Source: a virus (lineage: Duplodnaviria; Heunggongvirae; Uroviricota; Caudoviricetes). Taken from it: DNA of 64,000 nucleotides. Location: the IMG/VR virus record IMGVR_UViG_3300035208_002606; one strand, written 5' to 3'. Below are positions 17,192 through 29,393 of the stretch, piece by piece. The notes below the pieces were generated by a model, which was given only the letters and a program-made list of their open reading frames with translations, was not told the DNA's origin and did no database searches. The position numbers and the translations under genes are program-made. Position 1 is the first letter of the stretch. Every line of letters starts with the position of its first letter.

Positions 17192-17322
17192 ATTTGCATA
17201 AAAAATACAATTTTTCATTCATTGTAAAAAAACTGCAATTTTTCATTTTAAATAAAATAAAATCATAAATAGCAGTACGAAAGAAAAAACGACACACGAA
17301 AAGTTACGAAATAAAAACGGAG

Positions 17323-17333
17323 TGTGGTATAAT
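17323..17333 (+). promoter_or_regulatory. extended -10 promoter driving tRNA cluster start
   Basis: gtgtggtataat ends 17 nt before tRNA-Pro. Confidence 0.55.
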
Positions 17334-17350
17334 ATCGGTGTGAGTAATTA

Positions 17351-17426
17351 TCGGGGTGTAGCGCAGTTGGTAGCGTATCTGCTTTGGGAGCAGAGAGTCG
17401 GAGGTTCGAACCCTCTCACCCCGACC
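17351..17426 (+). tRNA. tRNA-Pro(TGG), CCA encoded
   Basis: Acceptor cggggtg/caccccg, anticodon loop tttggga, T-arm ggaggttcgaaccctct; 10 nt downstream of extended -10 promoter. Confidence 0.7.
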
Positions 17427-17448
17427 ATTTTTAAAAAGTTCGCAAAGG

Positions 17449-17478
17449 ACTTGACAAGTAGAAATTAGCATGTTATAC
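17449..17478 (+). promoter_or_regulatory. sigma70-type promoter TTGACA-18-TATACT
   Basis: cttgacaagtagaaattagcatgttatact. Confidence 0.45.
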
Positions 17479-17675
17479 TTGTCACGGATGATATGACCTA
17501 GCAGGATGCGGGTCTTAGGTTGTTTGACATTTTGGTTTTGTGGTTTTTGTGAAGTGGGGCCGGTAGTTTCCCGGTCTTGTATCGGGATGGTATCGCCCCC
17601 GCTTCTTTTTCCTGAAGAGGGTCGATACTCTTTTCGGTGCAGTTAGATGCATCGGGAGTATCGCCCCTCTTCATA

Positions 17676-17935
17676 ATTCAGCGGCGGTGTGGAAGGACAC
17701 ACTAGGAGAGTGAGTGAGGACAGGCCTGACTACGGGTTAGCGGAACAACCGCTCCTTCGGGTTCTCCTGAAATGGAGATTGAATGTCTGAAGATATCCCA
17801 ATAAGAAATGCTCAAAGCGTGAGTGGTGTTAGAAAAAAGTAGGTTTACCGCTCTAAGGCACGGCAATTTAATATTTGCATGCTTACATACGCAACGGAAG
17901 TCCCACAAGTAGGTATCAAGTCCTACCCGCTGAAT
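17676..17935 (+). ncRNA. family-E tRNA-like structured RNA element
   Basis: Terminal helix attcagcgg/ccgctgaat; 5' hairpin gtgtg-GAAGGA-cacac; 3' hairpin gtagg-tatcaagt-cctac; U-tail. Confidence 0.4.
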
Positions 17936-18029
17936 TTTTAATCTAACCGCTTCGCCGTTGTGCGGCCTCCTGAAACATGGAAAAACAACGGCACTTGCAA
18001 TATTACTTCTTAATACTTTACTTTTATAT

Positions 18030-18105
18030 GGGGCCGTGGCAGACAAGTAGGTGCGTCTCGTTGTCAGCGAGGAATATGGGGGTGCGATTCCCCTCGACCC
18101 CGCCA
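18030..18105 (+). tRNA. tRNA-Asp(GTC), CCA encoded, non-canonical D/T loops
   Basis: Acceptor ggggccg/cgacccc, anticodon stem tctcg/cgagg, loop ttgtcag, T-loop tgcgatt, D-loop lacks GG. Confidence 0.45.
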
Positions 18106-18304
18106 AGCATTATTACGATGGGTTTTACAGCGTTAGGGCCATCATAAAAACAAGAAACTGTACTGAGGAGGGTTTTTCCGTGTTGTGCCTCAATAAAAAG
18201 AAACGGACTTTGCACTTTTTGTTCGTTACCAAGTGTAACGAACCCACAGAGGTTTCGTTCGCCTGAACCCGTCTGACGAATCAGGCGAAGATTATATCTC
18301 ACCT

Positions 18305-18456
18305 ATCAGCAGGTGGAAGGACACCGCATCGTGGAAGAGGAACTACTTTCCAACATCGGAGAGAAGCCCCTGGCCTCAAGACTAGGCAGTAGAATTCATG
18401 GGTCCATCACGATGGCTACATCTGAAGGAGTCAGCGGGTGTCGAGTCCCGCCTGAT
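18305..18456 (+). ncRNA. family-E element
   Basis: atcagc.../...cctgat termini; ggtg-GAAGGA-cacc hairpin; 3' hairpin gcggg-tgtcgagt-cccgc. Confidence 0.35.
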
Positions 18457-19111
18457 TGGTTATTAGTTAAGGTTTTCGGTGAACCTCCTAAGGTCGTACA
18501 GCGACCAAGGGTTATCGTACGTAAAAACCGAATTGGAATAGAGTAGGTTGGGGAAAGACGCCTAGGGTCTCCTGACCGAATTGGCTTTTGTGTCGTTGTG
18601 CCGCACCCACTTGATATCGTGGGCAGAGAAAACAACGGCTTGGAGTTCTTTGCCGTTATCCACCAATTCCATCGGCAGATAGGGTTGGTATTAAAAAATC
18701 AACGGCTTCCAATTTGATTTTACTGATTCTTTAAAAGAATCGGAAAACATAAAATGAGGCTTTCCGTTGTGCCATCCATCACCAAGTACCTAGAGTCGGG
18801 TTAATGGGAAAACAACGGGTTTCATTTTATTATCCTTGTTGTCCTTTATTGAGGTTAGCGGTGAGCCGCAAGAAGTGGTACTCGGAACTCCAATCCTAGC
18901 ACCTATGCTTGAAAAACCGCTGAGGTCAATGGCATTAATTTAGCAATGTATATATTGAGGCGAGAACGGGAGTAGAAATTGGGTTCTCCCTAATTCTGAC
19001 CTATTCCCATTCTCACTTCAAGCATTACTATCGCAGGAGGGAGGTCAATATCTCAGGTGGTTTCATATGCCATCTTAAAGTCGTGTAACTCGGCTTCCTG
19101 CTAGAAAATTA

Positions 19112-19188
19112 TCGCAGAGTATCCTAGTGGCTAAGGAATGAGTTTCATAAACTCGGAGCCGAAGGTTCGAATCCTTCCTCTGCGACCA
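19112..19188 (+). tRNA. tRNA-Met(CAT), CCA encoded
   Basis: Acceptor tcgcaga/tctgcga, loop ttcataa, T-arm gaaggttcgaatccttc. Confidence 0.7.
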
Positions 19189-19198
19189 AAGCAATTTT

Positions 19199-19287
19199 AC
19201 CGAAGGACGGTAGCCCCGTTTCCGCAAGAATAGGCATCGGCTAGCAAAACTATTCCATAGGAATGAGAGTAGCCTCTCATCTTCGGT
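19199..19287 (+). ncRNA. family-E-like element (divergent)
   Basis: accgaag/cttcggt termini, 3' hairpin tgaga-gtagcc-tctca, T-tract. Confidence 0.3.
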
Positions 19288-19294
19288 TTTTTAT

Positions 19295-19365
19295 GGCCCT
19301 ATCGGCTAATAGTAGGCCGCTTCCCTTTCAAGGAAGAAACGTCGGAGCGTAACCGGCTAGGGCTA
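19295..19365 (+). tRNA. tRNA-Glu(TTC)-like, non-canonical T-loop agcgtaa
   Basis: Acceptor ggcccta/tagggct, anticodon stem cttcc/ggaag, loop ctttcaa. Confidence 0.45.
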
Positions 19366-19378
19366 CTTAATTTTTTTC

Positions 19379-19449
19379 GTCCCTATCGGCTAATAGTAGG
19401 CCACTTCACTCTCAATGAAGAAACCTCAGAGCGTAACTGAGTAGGGATA
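19379..19449 (+). tRNA. tRNA-Glu(CTC)-like, tandem paralog of preceding
   Basis: Acceptor gtcccta/tagggat, loop ctctcaa, T-arm ctcag-agcgtaa-ctgag. Confidence 0.45.
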
Positions 19450-19466
19450 CTTAGCAATTTTATGTA

Positions 19467-19610
19467 TGGAGCGGGTCTTGAAAAACACAAGAACGTCTCG
19501 GAAAATAGGGGTTGAAGGCACCCCAACGATACGGGTAACGAAAAAAGGAGCAGTAGCCCTTTACAACCTATAAAGGGGACTTCCTTATGGGTGAAATTCC
19601 CATCGCTCCA
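19467..19610 (+). ncRNA. family-E-like element (divergent)
   Basis: tggagcg/cgctcca termini, 3' hairpin atggg-tgaaatt-cccat. Confidence 0.3.
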
Positions 19611-19623
19611 CTTGCAATTTTAT

Positions 19624-19751
19624 GCGCGGGGTCCGATTGGGTGACATTCCCACGAACTAGTTTCGCCATCAGGGAGTGATGCCCCAAAGTGGTGCAACGA
19701 AAAAGGTGAGGAAATCGCATCCCTTTAGACGGTGGAACTCCGTCCCTGCGC
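19624..19751 (+). ncRNA. family-E-like element (divergent)
   Basis: gcgcgggg/ccctgcgc termini, 3' hairpin gacgg-tggaact-ccgtc. Confidence 0.3.
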
Positions 19752-19765
19752 TTTTAAATTTTTAA

Positions 19766-19836
19766 GCCCGATTAGTTTAAAAGTAAAACGCAATCCTGAT
19801 AAGGTTGATACGGTGGAGCGTTACCATCATCGGGCA
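19766..19836 (+). tRNA. tRNA-Ile(GAT), non-canonical class
   Basis: Acceptor gcccgat/atcgggc, AC stem caatc/ggttg, loop ctgataa, T-loop agcgtta. Confidence 0.45.
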
Positions 19837-19840
19837 TTTA

Positions 19841-19925
19841 TGCCGTAGTAGTCTAGCAGCAATGACAGCAGACTGTAAATCTGCCCCTCGTAAGAGGTTC
19901 GTAGGTGCGAGTCCTTCCTGCGGCA
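19841..19925 (+). tRNA. tRNA-Tyr(GTA), class II, non-canonical T-loop
   Basis: AC arm gcaga-ctgtaaa-tctgc, variable hairpin cctc-gtaa-gagg, acceptor gccgtag/ctgcggc. Confidence 0.5.
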
Positions 19926-20253
19926 CTTTGTTTTGTTCTTTAGTCAGTCCACCTTGAGAGAGATACGCTTCAGCGGCTCTCTAAGTTTTGTCCGTCTTTA
20001 TTAGACAGATGGGCTTGTGGACGCTTTAGAATTCGTTGGCGGTGTGTAGGGCGTGTAGTTTTGAATGCGACTAGACAAACGGATGCCCTATGTCAGCGAA
20101 GATAAATTATAATTAGATATTAATTAGAATGGGAACCTTAGGGCGTTGAATTGTGTCGCAGGGTCAATTGCTCTAAGGGGATGAGTTTGGATTAACGGGC
20201 GGTGGAGCCGACCATTGTTTAGGCGTTGAAGCCGCCCGAAATTTTTGTCGTGT

Positions 20254-20324
20254 AGCCGCATAAGTTAAAGGCAAACTGGTTCACTTATAATGGACTCATC
20301 CTAGTTCGATTCTAGGTGCGGCTA
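20254..20324 (+). tRNA. tRNA with anticodon TAT (Ile-like)
   Basis: Acceptor agccgca/tgcggct, D-arm agtt-aaaggca-aact, loop cttataa, T-arm cctag-ttcgatt-ctagg. Confidence 0.4.
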
Positions 20325-20574
20325 GTTTTGTATTATCCAAAGGGAATGAATGGACGGAGTAATTAACCGAAAGTTTATTTTCCTTTGAATGAGATAAAGG
20401 GAGTCTAGATTCCCTTTTGAAGAGGATACCCTTTCGTCTAGTGGTTAGGACGGCGGCGCATTGCCGTTAACTTGGGTTCGAATCCCAACAGGGTTTTAGG
20501 ATGGCGGTTTGGGAGTTCATCTGTCTAGACAGAAGAATGTAAGTCCGTCTCCCCTCTTCTTTTTTATTTCAAAG

Positions 20575-20585
20575 TGTGGTATAAT
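20575..20585 (+). promoter_or_regulatory. extended -10 promoter upstream of tRNA-Ala
   Basis: gtgtggtataat. Confidence 0.55.
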
Positions 20586-20593
20586 AGAAGTAT

Positions 20594-20669
20594 GGGCGAT
20601 GGGACTGCTTGGGGTGGTCGCCTCACTTGCAATGAGGATATCAGGCGAGTTCGAATCTCGCATCGTCCA
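20594..20669 (+). tRNA. tRNA-Ala(TGC)
   Basis: Acceptor gggcgat/atcgtcc, AC arm cctca-cttgcaa-tgagg, T-arm gcgag-ttcgaat-ctcgc; extended -10 promoter 9 nt upstream. Confidence 0.65.
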
Positions 20670-20721
20670 CATTTTGAACCTAAATATTTTTCAAAACACT
20701 AAATAATAGTAAAGGTTCAAA

Positions 20722-21783
20722 ATGAAACAACGGCAAGGGATGAGTTATTCTGAGGCGGGGAAATTAGGAGCAAAAATAGGTTGTGAAATTGTTCAAAACA
20801 AATGGCAAAAAATTATCAAGGAATATGATAAAAACCCAAATCATTGTATAGTTTGTAATAAATCATTATCTTATTACAAACGTAATAAACAATTTTGCGG
20901 TTCTTCTTGTTCAGCAACTTATAATAACCAACATAGATTTTTTAAACCATCGGAAGATAAAAGAACAAAAATAATAAAATGTGCTAAATGTGGGAAAGAA
21001 ATAGAAGAAAATATTAGAGCAGGAAAAAATACAAAGTGCAGTAATTGTAAAACACAAATAAAAACAATAAAAATTATCAAAATAAATGGCAAAGAAACAA
21101 AAATTATAAGAAAAATAAGAAATCCTAAAATTCCAAAATTATGTAAATATTGTGGTCAGGAAAAATGCTTACGTCCTGATATATGTAGAAAACATCAATT
21201 ATTTCCAGCATTGATAAATTATTTCGGACTTAATAAATCTAAAATAGGAACAATTGATTTTTATGAAGAATTTGATAGAATACGAAATAAACTCATTGAG
21301 GAATATATAAATCAAAAAAGGAGTCTTGTTGAATTAAAGGAAAAATATAACCACCACGATATAAGAAATTTTAACAAACTTTTTGATAGTTTAAAAATTC
21401 CTAAACGAAATAATTCTGATTCCGTAAGAAATGCGGTTTTTAATGGTCGATATAAATTACCATCAGCACAATATCCATATAAACACGGTTGGCATACAAC
21501 TTGGGATAACAAAAAAGTTTTTTATCGTAGTTCTTACGAATTAGATTATGCAAAAGAACTAGATAAACAACAAATAGAATACGAAATGGAAAAATTAAGG
21601 ATACTTTATTGGGACAGCCAAAGACAAATACAACGAGTGGCAATTCCCGACTTTTATTTACCCAAGCAAAATAAAATAGTAGAAATAAAAAGTCCGTGGA
21701 CTTTGGACAAACAAAATATGAAGGATAAGGAAAAAGCATATAAAGAACACGGATATGTATTTGAATTAATTGTTGGAAAATAA
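20722..21783 (+). CDS. PD-(D/E)XK-family endonuclease with N-terminal Cys-rich zinc-finger region
   Basis: C-terminal ...IPDFYLPKQNKIVEIKS (PD...E-x-K); multiple CxxC pairs N-terminally; paralog at 23883. Confidence 0.5.
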   Translation: MKQRQGMSYSEAGKLGAKIGCEIVQNKWQKIIKEYDKNPNHCIVCNKSLSYYKRNKQFCGSSCSATYNNQHRFFKPSEDKRTKIIKCAKCGKEIEENIRAGKNTKCSNCKTQIKTIKIIKINGKETKIIRKIRNPKIPKLCKYCGQEKCLRPDICRKHQLFPALINYFGLNKSKIGTIDFYEEFDRIRNKLIEEYINQKRSLVELKEKYNHHDIRNFNKLFDSLKIPKRNNSDSVRNAVFNGRYKLPSAQYPYKHGWHTTWDNKKVFYRSSYELDYAKELDKQQIEYEMEKLRILYWDSQRQIQRVAIPDFYLPKQNKIVEIKSPWTLDKQNMKDKEKAYKEHGYVFELIVGK

Positions 21784-21787
21784 TCGC

Positions 21788-21858
21788 GCCCCACTAGTTC
21801 AATAGCAGAACGCATCACCTGTAATGATGATATGCGGGTGCAATTCCTGCGTGGGGCT
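21788..21858 (+). tRNA. tRNA-Thr(TGT), C33, non-canonical T-loop tgcaatt
   Basis: Acceptor gccccac/gtggggc, D-arm gttc-aatagca-gaac, AC arm catca-cctgtaa-tgatg. Confidence 0.45.
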
Positions 21859-21863
21859 TTTTT

Positions 21864-21935
21864 GCACACTTAGTTCAATCAGTAGAACATGACCCTCGTA
21901 AAGTCGAAACAGCGGAGCATAACCGTTAGTGTGCT
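21864..21935 (+). tRNA. tRNA-Thr(CGT), non-canonical T-loop agcataa
   Basis: Acceptor gcacact/agtgtgc, D-arm gttc-aatcagta-gaac, loop ctcgtaa. Confidence 0.45.
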
Positions 21936-21947
21936 TTGAAATTTCAT

Positions 21948-22018
21948 GCCGCCGTAGTTCAATGGCAGAACGCTTGTTCGGTAAACAAGAGACAATTGTT
22001 CGATTCAATTCTGCGGCT
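21948..22018 (+). tRNA. tRNA-Thr(GGT)
   Basis: Acceptor gccgccg/ctgcggc, AC arm cttgt-tcggtaa-acaag, T-arm aattg-ttcgatt-caatt. Confidence 0.55.
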
Positions 22019-22112
22019 CCACATTTACATCTATCTCATCTACCATAATCGTGTGTGGCGATTACTGAGAGTAGAAAGAGTTGGGCCATCGTTATGCGTT
22101 GGCCTTTCTGAT

Positions 22113-22207
22113 ATCGACAGAGGCATAAACAATTCAAAATTTATGTCGCATCCTTCGTTTGGGTGCAAGCGTGGTACGTTAGTGTCGGGTTACGCCGACC
22201 TGTCGAT
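22113..22207 (+). ncRNA. family-E element (short)
   Basis: atcgacag/ctgtcgat termini; 3' hairpin gtcgg-gttacg-ccgac. Confidence 0.35.
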
Positions 22208-22220
22208 TTTAATTATGATA

Positions 22221-22417
22221 ACCGACAGCGGCGTGGAAGGACACGCAAGACGAGGTTGTGAATGCTAGGAACTGCGGAATTGTCCACCGCTATCCTTGGC
22301 CTCTTGGTGATGCCCTATTTAATCGGGATGAACTCCGTAGAGAAGCATCATAAGCCCATGAAATGACATGGAACCAAGTGAGAGCATTCTAGTGGGTGTC
22401 GAACCCCACCTGTCGGT
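22221..22417 (+). ncRNA. family-E element
   Basis: accgacag/ctgtcggt; gcgtg-GAAGGA-cacgc; 3' hairpin gtggg-tgtcgaac-cccac; tttttta tail. Confidence 0.4.
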
Positions 22418-22435
22418 TTTTAGCATTTCATAATA

Positions 22436-22603
22436 ACCGCTAGCGGCGTGGAAGGACACGCCCATTATCTAATGAACATCTTAGGCCTAGCCCTTACAGG
22501 TTCGGGATGCGGTTGACGACCACATTGGCTGTGAGTAGGGAAGCAAATGGCAGGGGTAATTACCTGAAAATCTAGGAGTAGGTGTCGAATCCTACCTAGC
22601 GGT
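22436..22603 (+). ncRNA. family-E element
   Basis: accgctag/ctagcggt (compensatory change vs neighbours); gcgtg-GAAGGA-cacgc; gtagg-tgtcgaat-cctac. Confidence 0.4.
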
Positions 22604-22621
22604 TTTTAATTTGATTTTACA

Positions 22622-22801
22622 CTTGACAGCGGCGTGGAAAGCAGACACGCAGTTCATAGTGTGGGAAAAACTTTGGGTTGCAAATGAAAGCATCCTCCCG
22701 AGGACAAGCCCACATGGAAAGGAATGGAAACATTCTGGAATGCGAGGAGTAAGGCAGTAATAAGGGCATCGTAGAGTCGGAGTAGCGTCCGAACTGTCAA
22801 G
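22622..22801 (+). ncRNA. family-E element
   Basis: cttgacag/ctgtcaag; gcgtg-gaaagcaga-cacgc; 3' hairpin tcgga-gtagcg-tccga. Confidence 0.4.
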
Positions 22802-22832
22802 TTTATTTTGCAATTTTAAGAAGGAGGAAAAA

Positions 22833-23258
22833 ATGAATTATCGAAAAAAAGCATTTGAAGCATATCCCCATAAATGCGCTGTATGTGGATATGATAAATA
22901 CCCAGTACTTTTAGAAGTTCACCATAAAGATAAAAATAGGATGAACAATAATTTGGAAAATTTAGTAATTTTATGTATAACACATCACATGGAATTCCAT
23001 CTAGACCGTTTATGGTTAAATAGGAATAAACAGCGCATAGGTATTAATAAAGCAAAAAAACAAGGAAAATATAAAGGTAGGAAAAAGAAATTAACACATG
23101 AAGATTTAATGATAATAAAAGAAAGACTTCTAAATGGAGTAAAAAAAGCAAAAATTGCTAGAGAATTTAAAATTTCTAGAGCAACTTTATATTCATATAT
23201 TGGGTCTTGGGAAGTTACTGTAACTAGGACTATTACTGAAAAAAACATGCTCCCATGA
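22833..23258 (+). CDS. HNH endonuclease with C-terminal resolvase-type HTH
   Basis: CAVCGYD...EVHHKDKNRMNNNLENLVILCITHHMEFH; C-terminal GVKKAKIAREFKISRATLYSY HTH. Confidence 0.7.
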   Translation: MNYRKKAFEAYPHKCAVCGYDKYPVLLEVHHKDKNRMNNNLENLVILCITHHMEFHLDRLWLNRNKQRIGINKAKKQGKYKGRKKKLTHEDLMIIKERLLNGVKKAKIAREFKISRATLYSYIGSWEVTVTRTITEKNMLP

Positions 23259-23420
23259 TGTAATAGACAGCAACATACGCTTCGAACGTATGAGTTCGGG
23301 TGCAAATCCTGATGGGAGTGCTAGCATTATTAGATGGTGATAGGGGGCAACACCAACAAGTGCAGAACAGTCCGCTTCGAAAGAAGAAAGGAACATGACG
23401 GCTTGCTAAAGTCCCCTTTA

Positions 23421-23493
23421 AGCGAATTTGATGTAACAGTTAGCATCTGACCTTGCCAAGGTTAGCGTAAGGGTGCGAATCCCTTAATTCGCT
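23421..23493 (+). tRNA. tRNA-Gly(GCC), non-canonical T-loop tgcgaat
   Basis: Acceptor gcgaatt/aattcgc, D-arm gatg-taacagttag-catc, loop ttgccaa. Confidence 0.5.
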
Positions 23494-23499
23494 CTTTAT

Positions 23500-23584
23500 G
23501 ACAAGATGGCAGAGCGGTTTATTGTGGCAGTCTCGAAAACTGTTGGGTGTAACAGCCCCGAAAGTTCGAATCTTTCTCTTGTCG
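23500..23584 (+). tRNA. tRNA-Ser(CGA), class II
   Basis: Acceptor gacaaga/tcttgtc+G73, AC arm gcagt-ctcgaaa-actgt, long variable arm, T-arm gaaag-ttcgaat-ctttc. Confidence 0.65.
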
Positions 23585-23590
23585 AAGTAT

Positions 23591-23664
23591 GCACTCGTAC
23601 CGCAGAGGTTTAACGGGGCGGTCTGCAAAACCGTTATTCATTGGTTCGAATCCAATCGAGTGCT
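23591..23664 (+). tRNA. tRNA-Cys(GCA)
   Basis: Acceptor gcactcg/cgagtgc, loop ctgcaaa, T-arm attgg-ttcgaat-ccaat. Confidence 0.65.
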
Positions 23665-23678
23665 TTTTGAAATTTTAT

Positions 23679-23746
23679 GCGGGTATCGTCCAATAGTAGG
23701 ACTTCAGATTTCCACTCTGAAAATCTCGGCGCACATCCGGGTATCC
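23679..23746 (+). tRNA. tRNA-Gly(TCC), non-canonical T-loop
   Basis: Acceptor gcgggta/tatccgc, D-arm gtcc-aatagta-ggac, AC arm tcaga-tttccac-tctga. Confidence 0.45.
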
Positions 23747-23763
23747 GCTCTTTTATTATTTTA

Positions 23764-23838
23764 TGGCCTTGTGGCGCAACTGGATAACGCGTTGACCTGT
23801 TAAGTCAAGGATTGGTCGTTCAAATCGACTCAAGGCCG
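23764..23838 (+). tRNA. tRNA-Asn(GTT)
   Basis: Acceptor ggccttg/caaggcc, AC arm ttgac-ctgttaa-gtcaa, T-loop ttcaaat; followed by T9 run. Confidence 0.65.
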
Positions 23839-23882
23839 TTTTTTTTTGACTTGAACCTTTATCAAAAACAATAAATATAGTT

Positions 23883-24875
23883 ATGAGAAAGGTTCGAAAC
23901 AAACATATATGTAAAAACTGTCAAAAAGAATTTATTCCCAAACAAGAAGCATTTTATAAATTTTGTTGTCAATCGTGTGCGGCTACTTATAATAATCAAC
24001 ATAGAATTTTTAAACCATCAGAAGACAAAAGAACAAAAATAATAAAATGCGCTAAATGTGGTAAAGAAATAGAAGTAAATATTAGGTCTGGTAAAAATAC
24101 AAAATGTGCCGATTGCAAAGAATATGTAAAAATTATCATCCCATCTACTAAAGGAAAAAGGTGGATAAAAAAGAAAACAATAAGAAATCGTAAAATTTAT
24201 CCATGTAAATATTGTGGGCAAGAAAAATGTTTACGGCCTGATATTTGTAAAAGATATCGTTTATTTCCTCGGCTTATAAAATATTTTGGATTGGACGAAA
24301 CCAAAATAGGAACAATTGAAATTTATGAAGAATTTGACCGCATAAGAAATAAACTCATTGAGGAATATTGGGACAAATTAACACCAATGGGTGATATTTG
24401 TAAACAATATAATTATTATGATAATGTTAGTAATTTTGCCTTTATTTTTAAATACCTAGACATCCCAAAAAGAACCCTTTCCGAAGCAGTAAGATTAAAT
24501 ATCAAAAATGGCAAATGCGTATCAACCCAAATAAACAACCAACGACCATATAAACACGGTTGGCACACTACTTGGGATAACAAACAGGTTTTTTACAGAA
24601 GTTCTTACGAATTAGATTATGCAAAAGAACTAGACGAACAAAAAATAGAATACAAAATGGAAAATCTTCGAATCCTTTATTGGGATAGCCAAAGACAAAT
24701 ACAACGAGTGGCAATTCCCGACTTTTATTTACCCAAGCAAAATAAAATAGTAGAAATAAAAAGTAAATTTACTTATAACGAACAAAATATGAAAGATAAA
24801 TTTAAATTTTATAAAGAACATGGATATAAAGTTAAACTAATTTTAGAACATAAAGAAATATTTATAGATTCATAA
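23883..24875 (+). CDS. PD-(D/E)XK-family endonuclease with N-terminal zinc-finger region (paralog of 20722-21783)
   Basis: Same C-terminal block ...YKHGWHTTWDNK...RVAIPDFYLPKQNKIVEIKS; CxxC pairs. Confidence 0.5.
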   Translation: MRKVRNKHICKNCQKEFIPKQEAFYKFCCQSCAATYNNQHRIFKPSEDKRTKIIKCAKCGKEIEVNIRSGKNTKCADCKEYVKIIIPSTKGKRWIKKKTIRNRKIYPCKYCGQEKCLRPDICKRYRLFPRLIKYFGLDETKIGTIEIYEEFDRIRNKLIEEYWDKLTPMGDICKQYNYYDNVSNFAFIFKYLDIPKRTLSEAVRLNIKNGKCVSTQINNQRPYKHGWHTTWDNKQVFYRSSYELDYAKELDEQKIEYKMENLRILYWDSQRQIQRVAIPDFYLPKQNKIVEIKSKFTYNEQNMKDKFKFYKEHGYKVKLILEHKEIFIDS

Positions 24876-24889
24876 TATGTTTTTATGTC

Positions 24890-24973
24890 GCTGAAGTGGT
24901 GGAAAGGTTTACACGCCGTCTTGAGGTGGCGGTGTCGAAAGGCATGAGCGTTCGAATCGCTCCTTCAGCACCA
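24890..24973 (+). tRNA. tRNA-Leu(GAG), class II, CCA encoded
   Basis: Acceptor gctgaag/cttcagc, loop ttgaggt, T-arm gagcg-ttcgaat-cgctc. Confidence 0.65.
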
Positions 24974-25096
24974 ATGTAATATTAATGAATGGTGATAAGC
25001 GAATGGTCGCCAGGTCGCACCTGAGTAGGTTCGATTCCTACGATTGCCGTGGTCGGTGCGGGGTTCGATTCCCCAATCGCCATTCATTCTTTTTAT

Positions 25097-25169
25097 GGCA
25101 AGGTCGCTTACGTGGTCATAGCGTCCCGCTGAAGACGGGAAAATGGGTGTTCGATTCACCCCCTTGCCA
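25097..25169 (+). tRNA. tRNA-Phe(GAA)
   Basis: Acceptor ggcaagg/ccttgcc, AC arm tcccg-ctgaaga-cggga, T-arm gggtg-ttcgatt-caccc. Confidence 0.65.
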
Positions 25170-25203
25170 TCGTCTATTTTACTAAATACTGTTAGAGGAC
25201 GAT

Positions 25204-25704
25204 ATGAAATTTAGAAAAGTAGAAGAATTATCCGATATCGAAATGATGAATAAAACTTCACGCCCTGATGATTATACATCGGTAACGACAAAGTTTATTC
25301 TTAGCACATTCAAACCCGAACAAGGTTTGACTTTCTTGGATTACGGAGCAGGAAAGAAGGCTACCCAAACAAAAAAATTATTGGAAGCAGGATACGATGT
25401 TACTGCTTATGAAATGGGTGGCAACGTAACTGAATTACATGATAAAAACGCATTAAATAAAAAATACGATGTCGCCTTCGCCTCTAATGTTTTGAATGTT
25501 CAACCAACAATGACATTAATCCGTCAAATGCTTGTAGAAATGAGCCTATCTTCAAAAAAATATATCATTATGAACTACCCAAGTTCACCTAGAAAGTTTA
25601 GAGACCATTTTATCAACAACAAAGAAATGAAAAAAATTATCGAAGATAACCTTGAGGGGGAAGTTAAAGTTTACCCCAACACAATTTTCGTTTATCAAAA
25701 GTAA
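25204..25704 (+). CDS. small class I SAM-dependent methyltransferase-like protein
   Basis: LTFLDYGAGKK motif I, acidic YE post-I, DVAFASNVLN motif; embedded in tRNA cluster. Confidence 0.5.
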   Translation: MKFRKVEELSDIEMMNKTSRPDDYTSVTTKFILSTFKPEQGLTFLDYGAGKKATQTKKLLEAGYDVTAYEMGGNVTELHDKNALNKKYDVAFASNVLNVQPTMTLIRQMLVEMSLSSKKYIIMNYPSSPRKFRDHFINNKEMKKIIEDNLEGEVKVYPNTIFVYQK

Positions 25705-25716
25705 TTCAAATTTTTT

Positions 25717-25799
25717 GCCGGGGTGGTGTAATGGCAGACACAGCAGACTCAAAATCTGCCGCTCGTATGGGCGTGTGGGTTCAACTCCCTCTCCCGGCA
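25717..25799 (+). tRNA. tRNA-Leu(CAA), class II
   Basis: Acceptor gccgggg/tcccggc, D-arm gtgt-aatggcag-acac, loop ctcaaaa; paralog of tRNA at 29184. Confidence 0.6.
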
Positions 25800-25806
25800 T
25801 TTTCAT

Positions 25807-25877
25807 GGAGTCGTATTTCAACGGAAGAAGGGCTGACTCTTAATCAGTAGATGTGGGTTCGATTCCCGCCGACTTCA
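25807..25877 (+). tRNA. tRNA-Lys(CTT)
   Basis: Acceptor ggagtcg/cgacttc, AC arm gctga-ctcttaa-tcagt, T-arm gtggg-ttcgatt-cccgc. Confidence 0.5.
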
Positions 25878-25892
25878 TTTGCAATTTTATAT

Positions 25893-25963
25893 GGGTCTAT
25901 ATGTCAACGGTAGACGAGTGGGCCTTTAACCCAAAGATGGGGGTTCGATTCCCTCTAGACTCA
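25893..25963 (+). tRNA. tRNA-Lys(TTT)
   Basis: Acceptor gggtcta/tagactc, loop cctttaa, T-arm ggggg-ttcgatt-ccctc. Confidence 0.5.
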
Positions 25964-25971
25964 TTTTTTAT

Positions 25972-26044
25972 GCCCTGTTAGTTCAATTGGACAGAACACA
26001 TCCCTACGAAGGATAAAATGGGGATTCAAATTCCTCACGGGGTA
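25972..26044 (+). tRNA. tRNA-Arg(ACG)
   Basis: Acceptor gccctgt/acggggt, D-arm gttc-aattggaca-gaac, loop ctacgaa, T-loop ttcaaat. Confidence 0.6.
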
Positions 26045-26067
26045 CTTTCTAAAAAATAAATAATAGT

Positions 26068-26385
26068 ATGCAAAAGAAGGTATATCTATTATGGTGGATT
26101 TTATTCGTCAATATCTTGGATATAATCGTAACCTATTATGCATTTCATAACGAATTGCCCGTAAAAGAAATAGGCCCATTGGGGGCAAGCAACTCCGCAC
26201 TCATCTTCGGGTCATTGTTTAATTTGTTTGTTATTTCCCTTTGTTATTATATTGTTAAAACATACAAAAAAACAAAGGCACTAATGTTCAGAATTTTTTC
26301 AGGATTGATTCTTTTTTGGGCAGTATTCGATACCGCCGTAATCATCAATAATTTTTGGGTGATTCTTCAAGTCCTGCGGGGTTAA
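26068..26385 (+). CDS. small integral membrane protein
   Basis: 105 aa, three hydrophobic segments. Confidence 0.4.
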   Translation: MQKKVYLLWWILFVNILDIIVTYYAFHNELPVKEIGPLGASNSALIFGSLFNLFVISLCYYIVKTYKKTKALMFRIFSGLILFWAVFDTAVIINNFWVILQVLRG

Positions 26386-26451
26386 TTCAGCGGCTAGAAT
26401 GTCGGTCCTACAAACCGAACATCGGGGGTTCGAGTCCCTCACCCCGCACCA
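26376..26451 (+). tRNA. tRNA-Val(TAC), CCA encoded
   Basis: Acceptor gcggggt/accccgc, AC arm tcggt-cctacaa-accga, T-arm ggggg-ttcgagt-ccctc. Confidence 0.6.
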
Positions 26452-26469
26452 TTTTTCACTAAATAACAG

Positions 26470-27049
26470 TATGAAGTTCAAAATCATGGAATACAACAAA
26501 GACATTTACAATCAGCGTCCCGACACTTCGGGAAAGTTCAACAGGGGTGCTTATCGTGAGCCTACATTCAACAGGGAGAAGGATTACAAAGAATCGAAAG
26601 CATCTGAATTGGAAGTGCGTGAGTATTTTATTTCCAAGGGGTTCGAGTTCGTGAAGGAAGGCGGCATCATGTACGATGCCATGTTCAAGTGTACGAAGGA
26701 GCCTTTTAATCTTGAAGGTTGGGAAGTCAAGAAATATTGGACTGCCGAAGTCAAGGAAAGTTTCAAATCGCAACTCACGGGAAATGTCCCGATAGAATAT
26801 CAACAGCACGGGCATCCGACAGGAGTGGCGCAGACACAGGCAGATTTTTGGGTTGAAAAAATTCACGAGCCTAGCGGAAAAATATCGTTCGTGATAATGT
26901 GGACGAAAGACCTGAGAAAAATGATAGCAGAGAAAAAATATTTCAGGACTGCCTCAGGCGGCGACCCCGGAAGCGAAAGTTTGGTCTATCTTTTTAAAGT
27001 AGATGTGTTCAAACAACACGGAAAAATCCTAGACATTAAGACTTATTAG
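26470..27049 (+). CDS. hypothetical protein (MKFKIME start)
   Basis: ORF; first in-frame ATG at 26399 overlaps the tRNA, so start placed at MKFK ATG. Confidence 0.45.
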
Positions 27050-27143
27050 GGAAGATGGCAGAGCGGTTTAATGCATCTGCCTTGAAAGCAGACAAGGGTG
27101 CTAATACCATCCTTCAGGGGTTCGAATCCCTTTCTTCCCGCCA
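27049..27143 (+). tRNA. tRNA-Ser(TGA), class II, CCA encoded
   Basis: Acceptor gggaaga/tcttccc+G, AC arm tctgc-cttgaaa-gcaga. Confidence 0.65.
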
Positions 27144-27146
27144 TAT

Positions 27147-27231
27147 GAAAAGATGGCAGAGTGGACGATTGCATCCGCTTGGAAAGCGGAAGGGCATAAC
27201 AGCCTCAGAGGTTCGAATCCTCTTCTTTTCG
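27147..27231 (+). tRNA. tRNA-Ser(GGA), class II
   Basis: Acceptor gaaaaga/tcttttc+G, AC arm tccgc-ttggaaa-gcgga, T-arm agagg-ttcgaat-cctct. Confidence 0.65.
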
Positions 27232-27237
27232 TTTTAC

Positions 27238-27325
27238 GGTGAGTTGGCAGAGCGGTTGAATGCGGCATCCTGCTAAGATGTTGGGTGTAACAGCCCCGCA
27301 AGTTCGAATCTTGCACTCGCCGCCA
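27238..27325 (+). tRNA. tRNA-Ser(GCT), class II, CCA encoded
   Basis: Acceptor ggtgagt/actcgcc+G, loop ctgctaa, T-arm gcaag-ttcgaat-cttgc. Confidence 0.65.
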
Positions 27326-27329
27326 TTAC

Positions 27330-27403
27330 GCCCGTGTAGCCTAAGGGATGAGGCAACTGACTTCTAATCAGTTCTTATGGGAGTTCGAGTCTCTCCACGG
27401 GTG
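27330..27403 (+). tRNA. tRNA-Arg(TCT)
   Basis: Acceptor gcccgtg/cacgggt, D-arm gcct-aagggatg-aggc, AC arm actga-cttctaa-tcagt. Confidence 0.6.
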
Positions 27404-27411
27404 CTTGTATA

Positions 27412-27481
27412 GGGCCGTAACCCAATGGTTAGGGTCGTGGGCTTTGAACCCATTTATCTTCGTTCGAGTCGAAGCGGCCCT
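27412..27481 (+). tRNA. tRNA-Gln(TTG)
   Basis: Acceptor gggccgt/gcggccc, loop ctttgaa, T-arm cttcg-ttcgagt-cgaag. Confidence 0.55.
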
Positions 27482-27491
27482 GCATTATTTT

Positions 27492-27664
27492 ATCGACAGC
27501 GGCGTGGAAGGACACGCGAACCGAATCATGGGGGCAACGGACACCTGGCATGCCCCGATATCGCCCAGGATGTTTACTCCTAAATCGGGTAGGGCGAAGC
27601 ATAACACGCGGCGTTGCGGGACGCCGACCCATGATGTAGCCGGTATCAAGCCCGACCTGTCGAT
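27492..27664 (+). ncRNA. family-E element
   Basis: atcgacag/ctgtcgat; gcgtg-GAAGGA-cacgc; internal atcatgggg/ccccatgat helix; abuts tRNA-Arg(CCT). Confidence 0.4.
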
Positions 27665-27671
27665 TTTATTA

Positions 27672-27742
27672 AGCCCCTGTAGCGTAATGATAGCGCACAG
27701 GTTTCCTAAACCTACGGTCTAAGTTCGATTCTTAGCAGGGGT
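27672..27742 (+). tRNA. tRNA-Arg(CCT)
   Basis: Acceptor gcccctg/caggggt, loop ttcctaa, T-arm ctaag-ttcgatt-cttag; abuts 3' end of an E element. Confidence 0.45.
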
Positions 27743-27753
27743 ACGAATTATTT

Positions 27754-27826
27754 TAGCCGTTTGGTGAAATAGTTATCACATCTGCCTCTGAAGCAGATAT
27801 TCTTAGTGCGAATCTAGGAGCGGCTG
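27754..27826 (+). tRNA. tRNA-Gln(CTG), non-canonical T-loop tgcgaat
   Basis: Acceptor agccgtt/agcggct, D-arm gtga-aatagtta-tcac, AC arm tctgc-ctctgaa-gcaga. Confidence 0.5.
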
Positions 27827-27832
27827 TTTATA

Positions 27833-27906
27833 TTGGGTGGTAAGTCAATAGAAGACGCGTAGTATCGGAAACTACGAGTTGCGAGTGCAAGTCTCGCTCA
27901 CCCAAT
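27833..27906 (+). tRNA. tRNA-Pro(CGG), non-canonical T-loop tgcaagt
   Basis: Acceptor ttgggtg/cacccaa, AC arm gtagt-atcggaa-actac, T-arm gcgag-tgcaagt-ctcgc. Confidence 0.5.
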
Positions 27907-27989
27907 TTTTATGTTGACCGTAGCCAAGACAGCGAACGGCGATGCAGAACGCATCAGTTTAGGGGTGCAACCCCCTTCGGTCAACTCAT

Positions 27990-28061
27990 GGTGAGTGTAG
28001 TTCAACAGTAGAACGCCCGACTGTGAATCGGGGAATGCAAGGGCAGCACTTGTCACTCACC
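27990..28061 (+). tRNA. tRNA-His(GTG) with encoded G-1
   Basis: g|gtgagtg...cactcac|c (G-1:C73), D-arm gttc-aacagta-gaac, AC arm cccga-ctgtgaa-tcggg; unusual T-loop. Confidence 0.55.
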
Positions 28062-28067
28062 CCAAAT

Positions 28068-28150
28068 GCTGATATGGTGTAATTTGGTAGCCACGCTAGT
28101 CTTAGGAACTAGTCCTTAATTGGGTGTGGGTTCGAGTCCCTCTATCAGCA
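28068..28150 (+). tRNA. tRNA-Leu(TAG), class II
   Basis: Acceptor gctgata/tatcagc, AC arm ctagt-cttagga-actag. Confidence 0.6.
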
Positions 28151-28157
28151 CATTTAT

Positions 28158-28244
28158 GTCGATATGGCGCAAAGGGAGACGCAACGGTTTCAGAAACCGT
28201 CCGTTGGTCAACAGCGGCTATAGGTTCAAATCCTATTATCGGCA
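28158..28244 (+). tRNA. tRNA-Leu(CAG), class II
   Basis: Acceptor gtcgata/tatcggc, AC arm acggt-ttcagaa-accgt, T-arm atagg-ttcaaat-cctat. Confidence 0.65.
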
Positions 28245-29269: not shown

Positions 29270-29270
29270 C

Positions 29271-29345: not shown

Positions 29346-29393
29346 TTGTCTTATCAACCACAAAACCAAAATGTGAAGCAATCTGCTTCAAAG

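Follow-up and report, generated by a model that had tools for sequence, protein, structure and literature searches.

Covarying tRNA-like elements in phages and prophages as candidate genes for a small RNA with a variable body

In tmRNA (SsrA), the paired ends form an acceptor-like helix on a T-arm and a large insert replaces the anticodon arm, a layout shared by the phage elements described here. The P1/P7 C4 antisense RNA and the P4 CI RNA are phage sRNAs excised by RNase P via a tRNA-like acceptor/T part, and their variable loops act on targets. Phage T4 encodes rnaC and rnaD (species 1 and 2), small stable RNAs with no annotated function, inside its tRNA cluster, which adjoins a homing-endonuclease gene; rnaC ends in a canonical T-arm. 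YrlA is a non-coding RNA of bacteria and some phages with a tRNA-like D/T module; its parts are permuted relative to tRNA (5' stem, V, T, acceptor-like hairpin, D, 3' stem), it carries the Ro-binding motif GNCGAA(N)G, a Ro60/TROVE gene is found within 4 kb, and RNase P cleaves some members, which also receive CCA (Chen et al. 2014, PMC4201824). In the engineered "tRNA scaffold" (Ponchon and Dardel; see PMC3753655), a structured RNA replaces the tRNA anticodon arm and the chimera is processed and protected like tRNA.

The family analyzed here is not tRNA, tmRNA or YrlA/Y RNA. The sequence-only reading had compared it to tmRNA-like and Y-RNA-like tRNA mimics, and both resemblances fail. ARAGORN called none of 197 elements tmRNA, no Rfam tmRNA-clan match was found at the elements, and only 8 of 195 members encode CCA. 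Unlike tmRNA, the family has a full D-like hairpin, its acceptor sequence is unconstrained, so that no conserved G3-U70 is apparent, and several copies are possible per genome; an unsystematic look detected neither a conserved reading frame for a tag nor a series of pseudoknots of the tmRNA type. In contrast to the permuted, Ro60-linked YrlA, these elements run helix, D, body, T, helix, and TROVE was found in only 1 of 124 upstream neighbors. The likeness to T4 rnaC and rnaD is positional and homology is not established: neither has the GAWGGA hairpin or the 8-nt loop, and the covariance model R1 (see below) matched neither even at E<=10. The Rfam C4 family gave no match at the elements; no antisense targets were found in the 64-kb window, and the taxonomic spread of the family is far wider than that of C4. 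The "tRNA scaffold" is a laboratory construct on a real tRNA, whereas this family is natural and has its own non-canonical chassis.

We detected six copies in the window (the whole 64-kb stretch of phage DNA that was analyzed), all on the + strand and in the tRNA array (Table 1). Model R1 was built from 68 IMG/VR elements of unrelated viral contigs, with the window excluded, and is thus independent of the copies that it recovers: exactly six full-length matches (E 3e-12 to 1e-4), with nothing further above 10 bits in a filter-off scan of 17200-29500. The 12-mer GTGGAAGGACAC occurs exactly five times in the window, on the + strand inside the tRNA array (17689, 18313, 22233, 22448, and 27504), and all its remaining matches there have two mismatches. 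The claim that at least 10 elements share the architecture therefore holds for six. The other four (22113-22207, 19199-19287, 19467-19610, and 19624-19751) gave no R1 match and have neither the GAWGGA hairpin nor the NNUCRARY loop; their stable cloverleaf-like folds with a closing helix (z -2.2 to -4.2) mark them as other tRNA-shaped elements, with homology to the family not established. The terminal helices (attcagcgg/ccgctgaat, accgctag/ctagcggt, cttgacag/ctgtcaag, and atcgacag/ctgtcgat), 5' hairpin stems (gcgtg/cacgc, gtgtg/cacac, and ggtg/cacc) and 8-nt 3' loops (tgtcgaat, tgtcgagt, and tatcaagt) quoted earlier are present as written.

Table 1. Coordinates of the six elements, their parts and RNA-related phage genes in the window.
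Feature	Position	Strand	Description
E1	17676-17935	+	260 nt; R1 52.9 bits, E 1.8e-9
E1 5' strand	17676-17684	+	ATTCAGCGG; linker CG
E1 5' hairpin	17687-17702	+	GTGTG-GAAGGA-CACAC
E1 3' hairpin	17909-17926	+	GTAGG-TATCAAGT-CCTAC
E1 3' strand	17927-17935	+	CCGCTGAAT
E2	18301-18460	+	160 nt, divergent member; R1 38.2 bits, E 2.2e-6
E2 5' strand	18301-18309	+	ACCTATCAG, one U-U mismatch; linker CA
E2 5' hairpin	18312-18325	+	4-bp, GGTG-GAAGGA-CACC
E2 3' hairpin	18434-18451	+	GCGGG-TGTCGAGT-CCCGC
E2 3' strand	18452-18460	+	
E4	22220-22418	+	199 nt; R1 57.0 bits, E 2.3e-10
E4 5' strand	22220-22228	+	AACCGACAG
E4 5' hairpin	22231-22246	+	GCGTG-GAAGGA-CACGC
E4 3' hairpin	22392-22409	+	GTGGG-TGTCGAAC-CCCAC
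E4 3' strand	22410-22418	+	CTGTCGGTT
E5	22435-22604	+	170 nt; R1 57.7 bits, E 1.7e-10
E5 5' strand	22435-22443	+	AACCGCTAG
E5 5' hairpin	22446-22461	+	
E5 3' hairpin	22578-22595	+	GTAGG-TGTCGAAT-CCTAC
E5 3' strand	22596-22604	+	CTAGCGGTT
E6	22621-22802	+	182 nt, atypical, both loops changed; R1 29.8 bits, E 1.4e-4
E6 5' strand	22621-22629	+	ACTTGACAG
E6 5' hairpin	22632-22650	+	GCGTG-GAAAGCAGA-CACGC, loop without GG
E6 3' hairpin	22776-22793	+	loop AGTAGCGT, without UC
E6 3' strand	22794-22802	+	
E7	27491-27665	+	175 nt; R1 66.2 bits, E 2.6e-12
E7 5' strand	27491-27499	+	
E7 5' hairpin	27502-27517	+	GCGTG-GAAGGA-CACGC
E7 3' hairpin	27639-27656	+	GCCGG-TATCAAGC-CCGAC
E7 3' strand	27657-27665	+	
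Rnl1-type ligase	8660-9865		beside/within array
Two CCA-adding-type nucleotidyltransferases	12898-15374		beside/within array
P-loop kinase-domain protein (AAA_33)	15344-15937		beside/within array
Thg1-like enzyme	28452-29198		beside/within array

The signature of the family is, in order, a terminal helix (7-bp core, frequently 8-9 bp or longer), a C-G/A linker (CG in 185 and CA in 11 of 197 members), a 5-bp GAWGGA hairpin (loop GAAGGA or GATGGA in 190/197), the body, an A (194/197), a 5-bp hairpin with the 8-nt NNUCRARY loop and, directly abutting it, the 3' strand of the helix. The proposed tRNA-like layout, namely an acceptor-like helix, a GG-containing hairpin 2 nt on and a hairpin abutting the 3' strand, is supported. 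The three helices of E4 and of E5 are recovered in their MFE folds. In E6 the GG and the UC of the two loops are lost together, a single case hinting that the 5' and 3' loops may interact.

All three helices covary far above controls, in agreement with the co-variation noted earlier for the terminal helix and the 5' stem. The samples come from two GC-rich exact-match anchors and are biased accordingly, so that in either set the anchored hairpin is conserved by construction. In the 5'-hairpin-anchored set, 99.5% of cells are paired, with double changes at 15 of 19 pairs; none of 500 shuffles reached the observed values, and slid controls paired at 30-44%. In the independent 3'-hairpin-anchored set, the inner seven positions of the terminal helix pair in about 96-100% of the scored sequences (eighth ~83%, ninth ~61%), and covariation is seen at each of the five pairs of the 5' hairpin (e.g., UA 57 / CG 29; GC 66 / UA 22). 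The stem of the 3' hairpin includes 16 G-U but no A-C pairs, which fits an RNA read from the element's own strand.

The chassis is tRNA-like in topology only. When a canonical anticodon arm was grafted on, ARAGORN accepted 14 of 197 constructs vs 30 of 197 loop-shuffled controls. Compared with the top half of a canonical tRNA, the 3' loop has 8 nt and not 7, position 8 is C and not U, and the 5' hairpin, of 5 bp with a 6-nt loop, is not canonical. Under tRNA numbering, 46% of the members have G at +1, 37% have U at -1 and 41% have A at 73; these members come from mostly GC-rich genomes.

The family is not confined to this phage but is very widespread among phages and prophages. Each of two independent sequence anchors matches at least 120 IMG/VR contigs, and R1 yielded 93 matches across 95 new 3'-hairpin-anchored loci. 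At least 35 bacterial genome loci, from many phyla, score 48 bits or more. Matches of 59-78 bits also occur in four cultured phages, Caulobacter phage DMCA, Acidovorax phage AP1, Pseudanabaena phage Pan3 and Komagataeibacter phage phiKX1, where the regions displayed have nothing annotated over the element. The chassis is conserved from Proteobacteria to Patescibacteria phages. Judged from these matches, the same predicted RNA occurs without annotation in hundreds of phages and prophages, which together span many bacterial phyla. Rfam 15 was empty even at E<=10 in focused searches, we found no GenBank annotation of the family and a literature search found no paper describing it, so the statement that it matches no named family stands. 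The elements form a genuine family of structured RNAs whose layout resembles that of a tRNA.

The body takes the place of the anticodon arm and has 41-250 nt (median ~90 nt) and one to three hairpins; the largest in the window, about 205 nt, is that of E1. No detectable relative was found for 171 of 197 bodies. In the related pairs E1/L023, L027/L119, L062/L303 and L101/L225, the bodies are still recognizably alike, whereas most of the terminal helix has changed in a compensated way; E1 and L023:1226-1520 have 84% mean column identity over the element and short flanks, and their rewritten helix is fully compensated. This handful of pairs, on which the cargo idea is based, suggests a lineage-specific body whose sequence is probably kept within a lineage. 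The bodies have no motif in common (strongest k-mer enrichment ~2-fold) and no conserved anticodon stem-loop, and a search of the window turned up no antisense target of any body.

The tRNAs near the elements are co-oriented with them: 21 of the 22 within 3 kb, among them all 17 within 1 kb, share the strand of the element, and eight are 3-62 nt from it. E7 lies between tRNA-Gln (27411-27483) and tRNA-Arg (27673-27744) with a 7-nt gap on each side, and E4, E5 and E6 are three tandem copies, E4 first, with 16-nt spacers. The window phage has seven tRNAs with non-standard T-loops, detected by Rfam and missed by ARAGORN, and its large terminase is distantly T4-like. Most members are found in phages without a tRNA in the retrieved flanks of a few kb, so punctuation of tRNA transcripts, as proposed earlier, cannot be their general role. 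There is no consistent protein neighbor: the nearest neighbors span 47 and 57 Pfam and 112 and 97 PHROG families, each of which occurs at 3 loci at most out of about 123, and about a third of the nearest neighbors are on the opposite strand.

We consider it on balance probable that the elements encode a small RNA that stands alone and acts in trans, composed of a tRNA-like chassis and a lineage-specific cargo. It is rather unlikely that the chassis alone matters, as a decoy whose acceptor/elbow end soaks up a host tRNA-end factor with the body as a tolerated spacer. Candidate targets would be acceptor-end toxins, e.g., MenT/AbiE-type nucleotidyltransferases and CapRel-type pyrophosphokinases, or RNase P and the CCA-adding enzyme; a decoy for anticodon nucleases, suggested earlier, is unlikely since there is no conserved anticodon-like arm. 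In favor of a decoy, only the chassis is conserved across phyla, as if its host partner were universal, no protein of the phages is linked to it as a partner, six copies in the window fit a dosage effect and the bodies are without a common motif. However, the bodies kept in related pairs despite rewritten terminal helices are thereby constrained, a pure decoy should have shrunk to a minimum size whereas the bodies have a median of about 90 nt and reach 250 nt, and the chassis deviates from tRNA at positions read by many tRNA-binding factors. A cis-acting signal with no free RNA, i.e., RNase P punctuation or an intrinsic terminator made up of closing helix and U-tract, is improbable. The tRNA-like spacing of E7 and of the tandem E4-E6 would agree with it, as would an operon boundary with the terminase large subunit gene 1-2 kb downstream on the same strand (about 15-23 loci) and an antiterminator gene upstream (2 loci). 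The U-tract described earlier holds for the window, where a T-rich run follows every copy, but it is missing from about 90% of members (present in 19/195) and is thus a trait of this AT-rich phage and not of the family. The varied neighbors, often on the opposite strand, also argue against a cis signal; a cut site would not require a body of 90-250 nt conserved within lineages, and three copies in tandem are difficult to account for on this reading.

The Rfam tRNA model and ARAGORN do not accept the elements as canonical tRNA. Aberrant or intron-bearing tRNA genes or pseudogenes missed by tRNA finders are very improbable, although the layout has acceptor-like helix, D-like and T-like arms, elements lie inside tRNA clusters and ARAGORN also missed the seven unusual tRNAs of this phage. 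ARAGORN with introns up to 300 nt calls only 1 of 197 elements, the Rfam tRNA model gives no match even in focused scans, and no anticodon stem-loop is conserved. The CG linker, GAWGGA loop, 8-nt loop and invariant A are kept across phyla while the "acceptor" sequence is free, a pattern opposite to that of a tRNA isoacceptor family or decaying pseudogenes. We give hardly any credence to a DNA-level element (miniature transposon, recombination/attachment site or packaging signal) with the helix as an inverted repeat. The copy of Caulobacter phage DMCA is flanked by a transposase gene and an integrase gene, and many copies are upstream of terminase genes, but such integrase/transposase neighbors are rare (2/124), orientation follows nearby tRNAs and the G-U bias of the 3' stem is strand-specific, RNA-type pairing. 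Moreover, variation is at the ends and conservation in the interior, whereas transposon inverted repeats show the opposite pattern.

For the small RNA with its cargo, we infer co-transcription with tRNAs where a cluster exists and probably transcription from its own promoter elsewhere. The RNA ends would be set by the tRNA-maturation machinery, by RNase P at the 5' end and then by 3' trimming, possibly followed by CCA addition; the two CCA-adding-type enzymes of the phage adjoin the array. A terminal helix of 8-9 bp or more would not be ideal for RNase P. The tRNA-like corner would provide RNA stability and recognition by a universal host factor, and the variable body would carry the lineage-specific activity. 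If this is true, nature would have in this family its own version of the engineered "tRNA scaffold" with which RNAs are expressed in E. coli.

We detected six full-length copies of family E, the tRNA-shaped structured RNA, in the window with R1, a covariance model built from other phages only, which avoids circularity. A CGGYGTGGAAGGACACRC pattern scan yielded 68 non-redundant elements, each of at most 165 nt, which were aligned on the 5' hairpin (set A1) and converted to the model; its E-values are rough, the calibration having been shortened. The matches (30-66 bits) have the family-E signature and were the only ones in the window; with the filters off, the scan of the tRNA array gave nothing further above 10 bits. 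The exact 12-mer GTGGAAGGACAC occurs five times in the window, always on the + strand and inside the array. The helices, hairpins and 8-nt loops quoted by the sequence-only reading are present as written, and its count of at least 10 copies came down to six, four other elements being undetected by R1.

Family-E copies and protein-coding features in and around the tRNA array of the window
Feature	Position	Strand	R1 score (bits)	Remark
E1	17676-17935	+	52.9	
E2	18301-18460	+	38.2	edge case: 4-bp stem, CA linker
E4	22220-22418	+	57.0	
E5	22435-22604	+	57.7	
E6	22621-22802	+	29.8	edge case: both loops altered
E7	27491-27665	+	66.2	
Rnl1-type RNA ligase	8660-9865			beside/within array
CCA-adding/poly(A)-polymerase-family nucleotidyltransferase	12898-14286			beside/within array
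Second CCA-adding/poly(A)-polymerase-family nucleotidyltransferase	14283-15374			adjoins the preceding enzyme gene
P-loop kinase-domain protein (AAA_33)	15344-15937			beside/within array
Paralogous ORF, 353 aa	20722-21783			inside array; weak DUF7487 and endonuclease I matches
HNH and resolvase-HTH ORF, 141 aa	22833-23258			directly after the E4-E6 triplet
Paralogous ORF, 330 aa	23883-24875			inside array; weak DUF7487 and endonuclease I matches
Thg1-like 3'-5' polymerase	28452-29198			beside/within array

R1 gave no match on 22113-22207, 19199-19287, 19467-19610 and 19624-19751 (+ strand, default filters or filters off, E<=10), and these elements are therefore not family-E members. They have stable cloverleaf-like folds with a closing helix around several hairpins, and they belong with the other odd tRNA-shaped objects of the array. 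The elements at 22112-22209 (fold z = -4.2), 19197-19289, 19466-19611, 19623-19752 and 27914-27988 are tRNA-shaped, with a closing helix and 3-4 internal hairpins, and have neither family-E loops nor canonical tRNA loops; the last is a cloverleaf of 75 nt whose 'anticodon' loop has 5 nt. The element at 24984-25093, also not family E, has a 13-bp closing helix around five hairpins (fold z = -3.4), two of them canonical T-arms (GTAGG-TTCGATT-CCTAC and GGGG-TTCGATT-CCCC), and looks like a fused or doubled tRNA-like element.

Family-E features were counted in 197 unique members with a rule-based detector. The order of the parts is terminal helix, 2-nt linker, 5' hairpin, body, A, 3' hairpin and 3' helix strand, and the 3' hairpin runs into that strand without an intervening base. 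The terminal helix is mostly 7-9 bp (at least 7 bp in the defining core), and the linker is CG in 185/197 members and CA in 11/197. The 5' hairpin consists of a 5-bp stem (4-5 bp in the definition) and the loop GAAGGA (161/197) or GATGGA (29/197). The body, 41 to about 250 nt long, is followed by the A in 194/197 members, and the 3' hairpin has a 5-bp stem and the 8-nt loop NNUCRARY, of which TATCAAGC is the commonest form and TGTCGAAT, TTTCGAGT and AATCAAGC were also found. The total length is 92 to about 270 nt. The GG of the 5' loop and the UC(R)A of the 3' loop are each nearly invariant in the 197 members, so that covariation between the two loops cannot be scored.

Since each exact-match anchor fixes one hairpin, two anchored sets were used, and the sampling is biased by these two GC-rich anchors. 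The CGGYGTGGAAGGACACRC pattern is present in at least 120 IMG/VR contigs; 115 of the 121 occurrences among the matches listed have a downstream complement to the bases just 5' of the motif, nearly always directly after a hairpin of the AGCCGG-TATCAAGC-CCGGC type. In A1, where the detector partly selected the terminal helix, 99.5% of cells pair and double changes occur in 15/19 pairs; none of 500 shuffles reached the observed values and slid controls paired at 30-44%. The 3' hairpin stem, not selected in A1, covaries as well (third pair CG 47, AU 13, GC 4, UA 2). The second scan, with AGCCGGTATCAAGCCCGGCC, gave the 3'-hairpin-anchored set A6 from at least 120 contigs, and R1 had 93 matches in 95 new A6 loci. 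This set was fitted to the model and is thereby weighted towards the modelled structure. Among its scored sequences, pairing is about 96-100% at the seven helix positions closest to the junction, about 83% at the eighth and about 61% at the ninth, and all five pairs of the 5' hairpin covary (e.g., UA 57 / CG 29; GC 66 / UA 22), as was also counted independently; the slid controls (28-42%) and counts made on the raw sequences speak against an artefact. The covariation proposed from the window sequence was therefore borne out, helix pairing being well above the shuffled (500) and slid controls. The 3' hairpin stem contains 16 G-U pairs and no A-C pairs, an asymmetry indicating that the structure is selected in RNA read from this strand.

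Family E is tRNA-like in topology, and it is not a tRNA. Seven base pairs of the closing helix form its universally paired core; this core adjoins a 5-bp hairpin, and the two, when stacked, give the 12-bp acceptor/T geometry of tRNA. As in tRNA, the 5' strand leads to a hairpin after two bases. GG and UC(R)A-type residues lock the tRNA elbow, and the conserved family-E loops contain both. Numbered as in tRNA, the members, which come mostly from GC-rich genomes, have G at +1 in 46%, U at -1 in 37% and A at 73 in 41% of cases. Unlike tRNA, family E has an 8-nt rather than a 7-nt loop in the 3' hairpin, a 5-bp 5' hairpin with a 6-nt loop and C at position 8, and CCA is encoded at positions 74-76 in only 8/195 members. 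Rfam gave no tRNA match (RF00005) on the elements at the gathering score or at E<=10; ARAGORN with introns called 1/197 elements, and with a grafted anticodon arm it accepted 14/197, compared with 30/197 loop-shuffled controls, so an intron-bearing tRNA and a canonical tRNA top half were both rejected. The likeness is one of topology only, given the loop and stem departures, the rare CCA and these negative results. The tRNA-mimic layout suggested earlier thus holds for the topology (helix, D-like and T-like hairpins) and fails for the canonical tRNA features; tRNA models reject the elements. Family E may adopt an L-shaped fold.

A loop-loop contact is hinted at by the joint loss of GG and UC in E6, a single case, and by the loops of a sister family, GCUGA and UCAGC, which are Watson-Crick complementary and occupy the same two positions as in family E. 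Simple Watson-Crick kissing of the GAWGGA loop with NNUCRARY was rejected, since the variable loop positions do not fit. The sister family was seen at five loci: L014:12931-13026, L016 (reverse strand, approximately 322-402 of the reverse complement), L220:6763-6860, L243:3082-3209 (Acidovorax phage AP1) and L297:4713-4810. Its parts are a covarying 7-8 bp closing helix, AAU, GCGCA-GGCUGA-UGCGC, a body and GCCGG-AGAUCAGCA-CCGGC abutting the 3' strand. It is often directly beside a family-E copy, and a regex search of the window found none. With its putative kissing loops, the sister family hints at a wider superfamily.

Among known RNAs, tmRNA has the idea of a top half plus insert in common with family E. 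The tmRNA-like character proposed earlier was not supported: ARAGORN -m called 0/197 elements, the Rfam search gave no tmRNA-clan match on them, and encoded CCA is rare. YrlA RNA has a permuted order (T, acceptor-like hairpin, D) inside a Ro-binding stem and is encoded within about 4 kb of a same-strand Ro60 (TROVE) gene (PMC4201824). In family E the order is helix, D, body, T, helix, and the Ro60 linkage is missing, so the proposed Y-RNA likeness and the search for a Ro60/TROVE partner both failed: a TROVE domain was found in 1/124 upstream neighbours, in none of the top downstream families and in none of 20 window ORFs scanned near the array. T4 rnaC and rnaD are analogues by position only, R1 matching neither. 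An intrinsic terminator was rejected, the helix closing a 90-260 nt multibranch domain instead of a simple hairpin; the U-tract reported after the element is seen as a T-rich tail in the window copies and in only 19/195 members overall. C4 and CI RNAs are functional analogies to family E; neither was detected here.

Family E spans phages and prophages of Proteobacteria, Acidobacteriota, Planctomycetota, Chloroflexota, Verrucomicrobiota, Elusimicrobiota, Patescibacteria and others, as well as a cyanophage. The same motif was scanned in one genome per bacterial species, and of the 100 loci scored by R1 among the matches listed, 45 were matched at E<=1e-3 and 35 reached 48 bits or more. The supported genomes include Methylobacterium, Bordetella, Chromobacterium, Mesorhizobium, Ancylobacter and Acetobacter, and the supported MAGs Acidobacteriota, Planctomycetota, Verrucomicrobiota, Anaerolineales, Elusimicrobiota, Micavibrio, Peribacteria and Patescibacteria; where checked, their family-E neighbours are phage-like (e.g., antiterminator, other PHROG families). 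About half of the bacterial-genome motif matches listed are chance and rejected by R1, many of them from actinomycetes; those examined are within or beside arginine-biosynthesis genes. Copies scoring 59-78 bits with R1 are present in four cultured phages (Caulobacter phage DMCA, Pseudanabaena phage Pan3, Acidovorax phage AP1 and Komagataeibacter phage phiKX1), where the regions shown have nothing annotated on the element. The earlier statement that the elements match no named family agrees with Rfam 15, which gave only tRNAs and none on the elements (whole window at the gathering score, array at E<=10, and two focused stretches). Searching the literature by topic and by sequence string turned up no published description, and family E may be among the 10,006 candidate viral RNAs catalogued in 2023 (PMC10690425) or other unnamed computational candidates.

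The window comes from an uncultured large phage, whose large terminase is a distant relative (<30% identity) of T4-type terminases from 140-170 kb myoviruses; a megablast search with the 12-kb array found no match among 50,697 phage records. The array (17352-29345, + strand) contains 32 tRNAs by ARAGORN and 36 by Rfam. Seven Rfam tRNAs (42-51 bits) missed by ARAGORN (19295-19365, 19379-19449, 19766-19836, 21864-21935, 23679-23749, 27834-27905 and 27991-28061) have non-standard T-loops, e.g., AGCGTAA, AGCATAA and GTGCAAG, and GG is missing from the D-loops of at least the first two; the window phage seems to use a second tRNA elbow type. The ligase, the two nucleotidyltransferases, one with an HD domain, the kinase-domain protein and the Thg1-like enzyme form a tRNA maturation/repair kit around the array. 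Homing-endonuclease-like ORFs are scattered among the tRNAs; the two paralogous ORFs, with blocks of 81-86% nucleotide identity, and the HNH ORF are probably homing endonucleases. A near-consensus promoter follows tRNA-Pro at 17451-17479 (TTGACA, 17 nt, TATACT, with TG; 11/12 matches), and a putative long inverted repeat, GAAGAGGG...CCCTCTTC, was read at approximately 17600-17675, just upstream of E1.

No protein gene travelling with family E was found by all-against-all flanking-ORF clustering, Pfam or PHROGs. The top ORF cluster is a terminase large subunit, encoded on the element's strand about 2 kb downstream of it; this cluster accounts for only 15/241 loci, and two further terminase clusters for 4 loci each. 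The nearest upstream and downstream ORFs represent 47-112 different Pfam/PHROG families, none in more than 3 loci, including regulators, integrases, helicases, homing endonucleases, terminase subunits and holins. In DMCA (L241, 2570-5626; element at approximately 25552-25688 of PQ480021.1), the element is about 100 nt downstream of a same-strand 439-aa 'transposase' gene and about 300 nt from an integrase gene of opposite orientation, an arrangement not seen at other loci. The one consistent genomic association is with tRNA genes. For most elements, the few kb of flanking sequence retrieved contain no tRNA; where tRNAs are present, 17/17 within 1 kb and 21/22 within 3 kb are on the same strand, and eight are only 3-62 nt from the element. 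E7 is 7 nt from tRNA-Gln and 7 nt from tRNA-Arg, and E4, E5 and E6 are in tandem with 16-nt spacers. The related pair L027/L119 has a TGTATAAT box that stops about 6 nt short of the helix, and a T-rich tail after it, suggesting that some copies are self-contained genes.

The bodies fold as one to three hairpins and have no common motif or fold, k-mer enrichment being at most about 2-fold; 171/197 have no detectable relative among the other bodies. The six window bodies are not related to one another, and their antisense targets within the window are not above shuffled controls. In the related pairs (E1/L023, L027/L119, L062/L303 and L101/L225), the body is visibly conserved and the terminal helix is largely rewritten with full compensation, indicating that the helix needs only pairing and that the body is sequence-constrained within a lineage. 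Between E1 and L023, identity averages 84% across the aligned element with its short flanks. L071 and L083 are a single G-U to A-U step apart. A search for further E1 relatives, aimed at cargo covariation, yielded only one other lineage (L023, L342, L343) and, in L341, a truncated fragment. The fragment (approximately 10350-10410, reverse strand) has an E1-like 5' end with the hairpin GTGTGGAAAGGACACAC, then CTAGGAGAGTGAGTGAGGA and unrelated sequence; its contig has no tRNAs, R1 gave no full-element match, and it is possibly a recombination remnant.

We suggest, with slightly better than even confidence, that family E is a stand-alone, trans-acting small RNA, in which a conserved tRNA-like chassis (closing helix, both hairpins and the A) carries a lineage-specific cargo, the body. 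The tRNA-processing machinery would mature and stabilise this RNA, which would then act in trans. Cleavage by RNase P at +1 of a 12-bp acceptor/T coaxial stack is a predicted step, supported indirectly by the 7-bp core with its 5-bp stem, by the leanings towards G at +1, U at -1 and A at 73, and by the spacing to tRNAs. The conserved chassis together with the lack of a linked protein gene argues for a universal host partner. A broader version is held more tentatively: family E could be a hitherto unrecognised, pan-bacterial, phage-borne RNA class whose non-canonical chassis gets diverse, fast-evolving cargoes processed, stabilised and presented, a universal host factor reading the chassis and the cargoes serving as lineage-specific effectors, e.g., sponges or aptamers against host defence or regulatory proteins.

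Other explanations were considered less probable. It is rather doubtful that the chassis alone acts, as a decoy for factors binding the acceptor or elbow end. A purely cis-acting cut site or terminator is less likely still; 90% of members lack the U-tract, and this explanation would not account for the conserved bodies. An aberrant tRNA gene is very improbable, and a DNA-level element hardly credible, with the G-U asymmetry speaking against it; family E also has variable ends and a conserved interior, opposite to the inverted repeats of transposons.

Little of the non-coding RNA repertoire of phages has been mapped. The wide distribution of family E and its invariant core point to an interaction with something universal in bacterial cells. 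The family has no Rfam 15 entry and no annotation in the deposited genomes of at least four cultured phages, which makes it immediately accessible to experiments. For annotation, family-E loci fill 'empty' intergenic space beside tRNAs, terminase genes and regulators. If the chassis-plus-cargo organisation is true, family E would represent a new class of viral tRNA mimicry in DNA phages and a natural 'tRNA scaffold' system, giving a design rule for stable RNA expression, and its members would provide hundreds of structured RNA cargo domains still to be explored, which may include anti-defence effectors.
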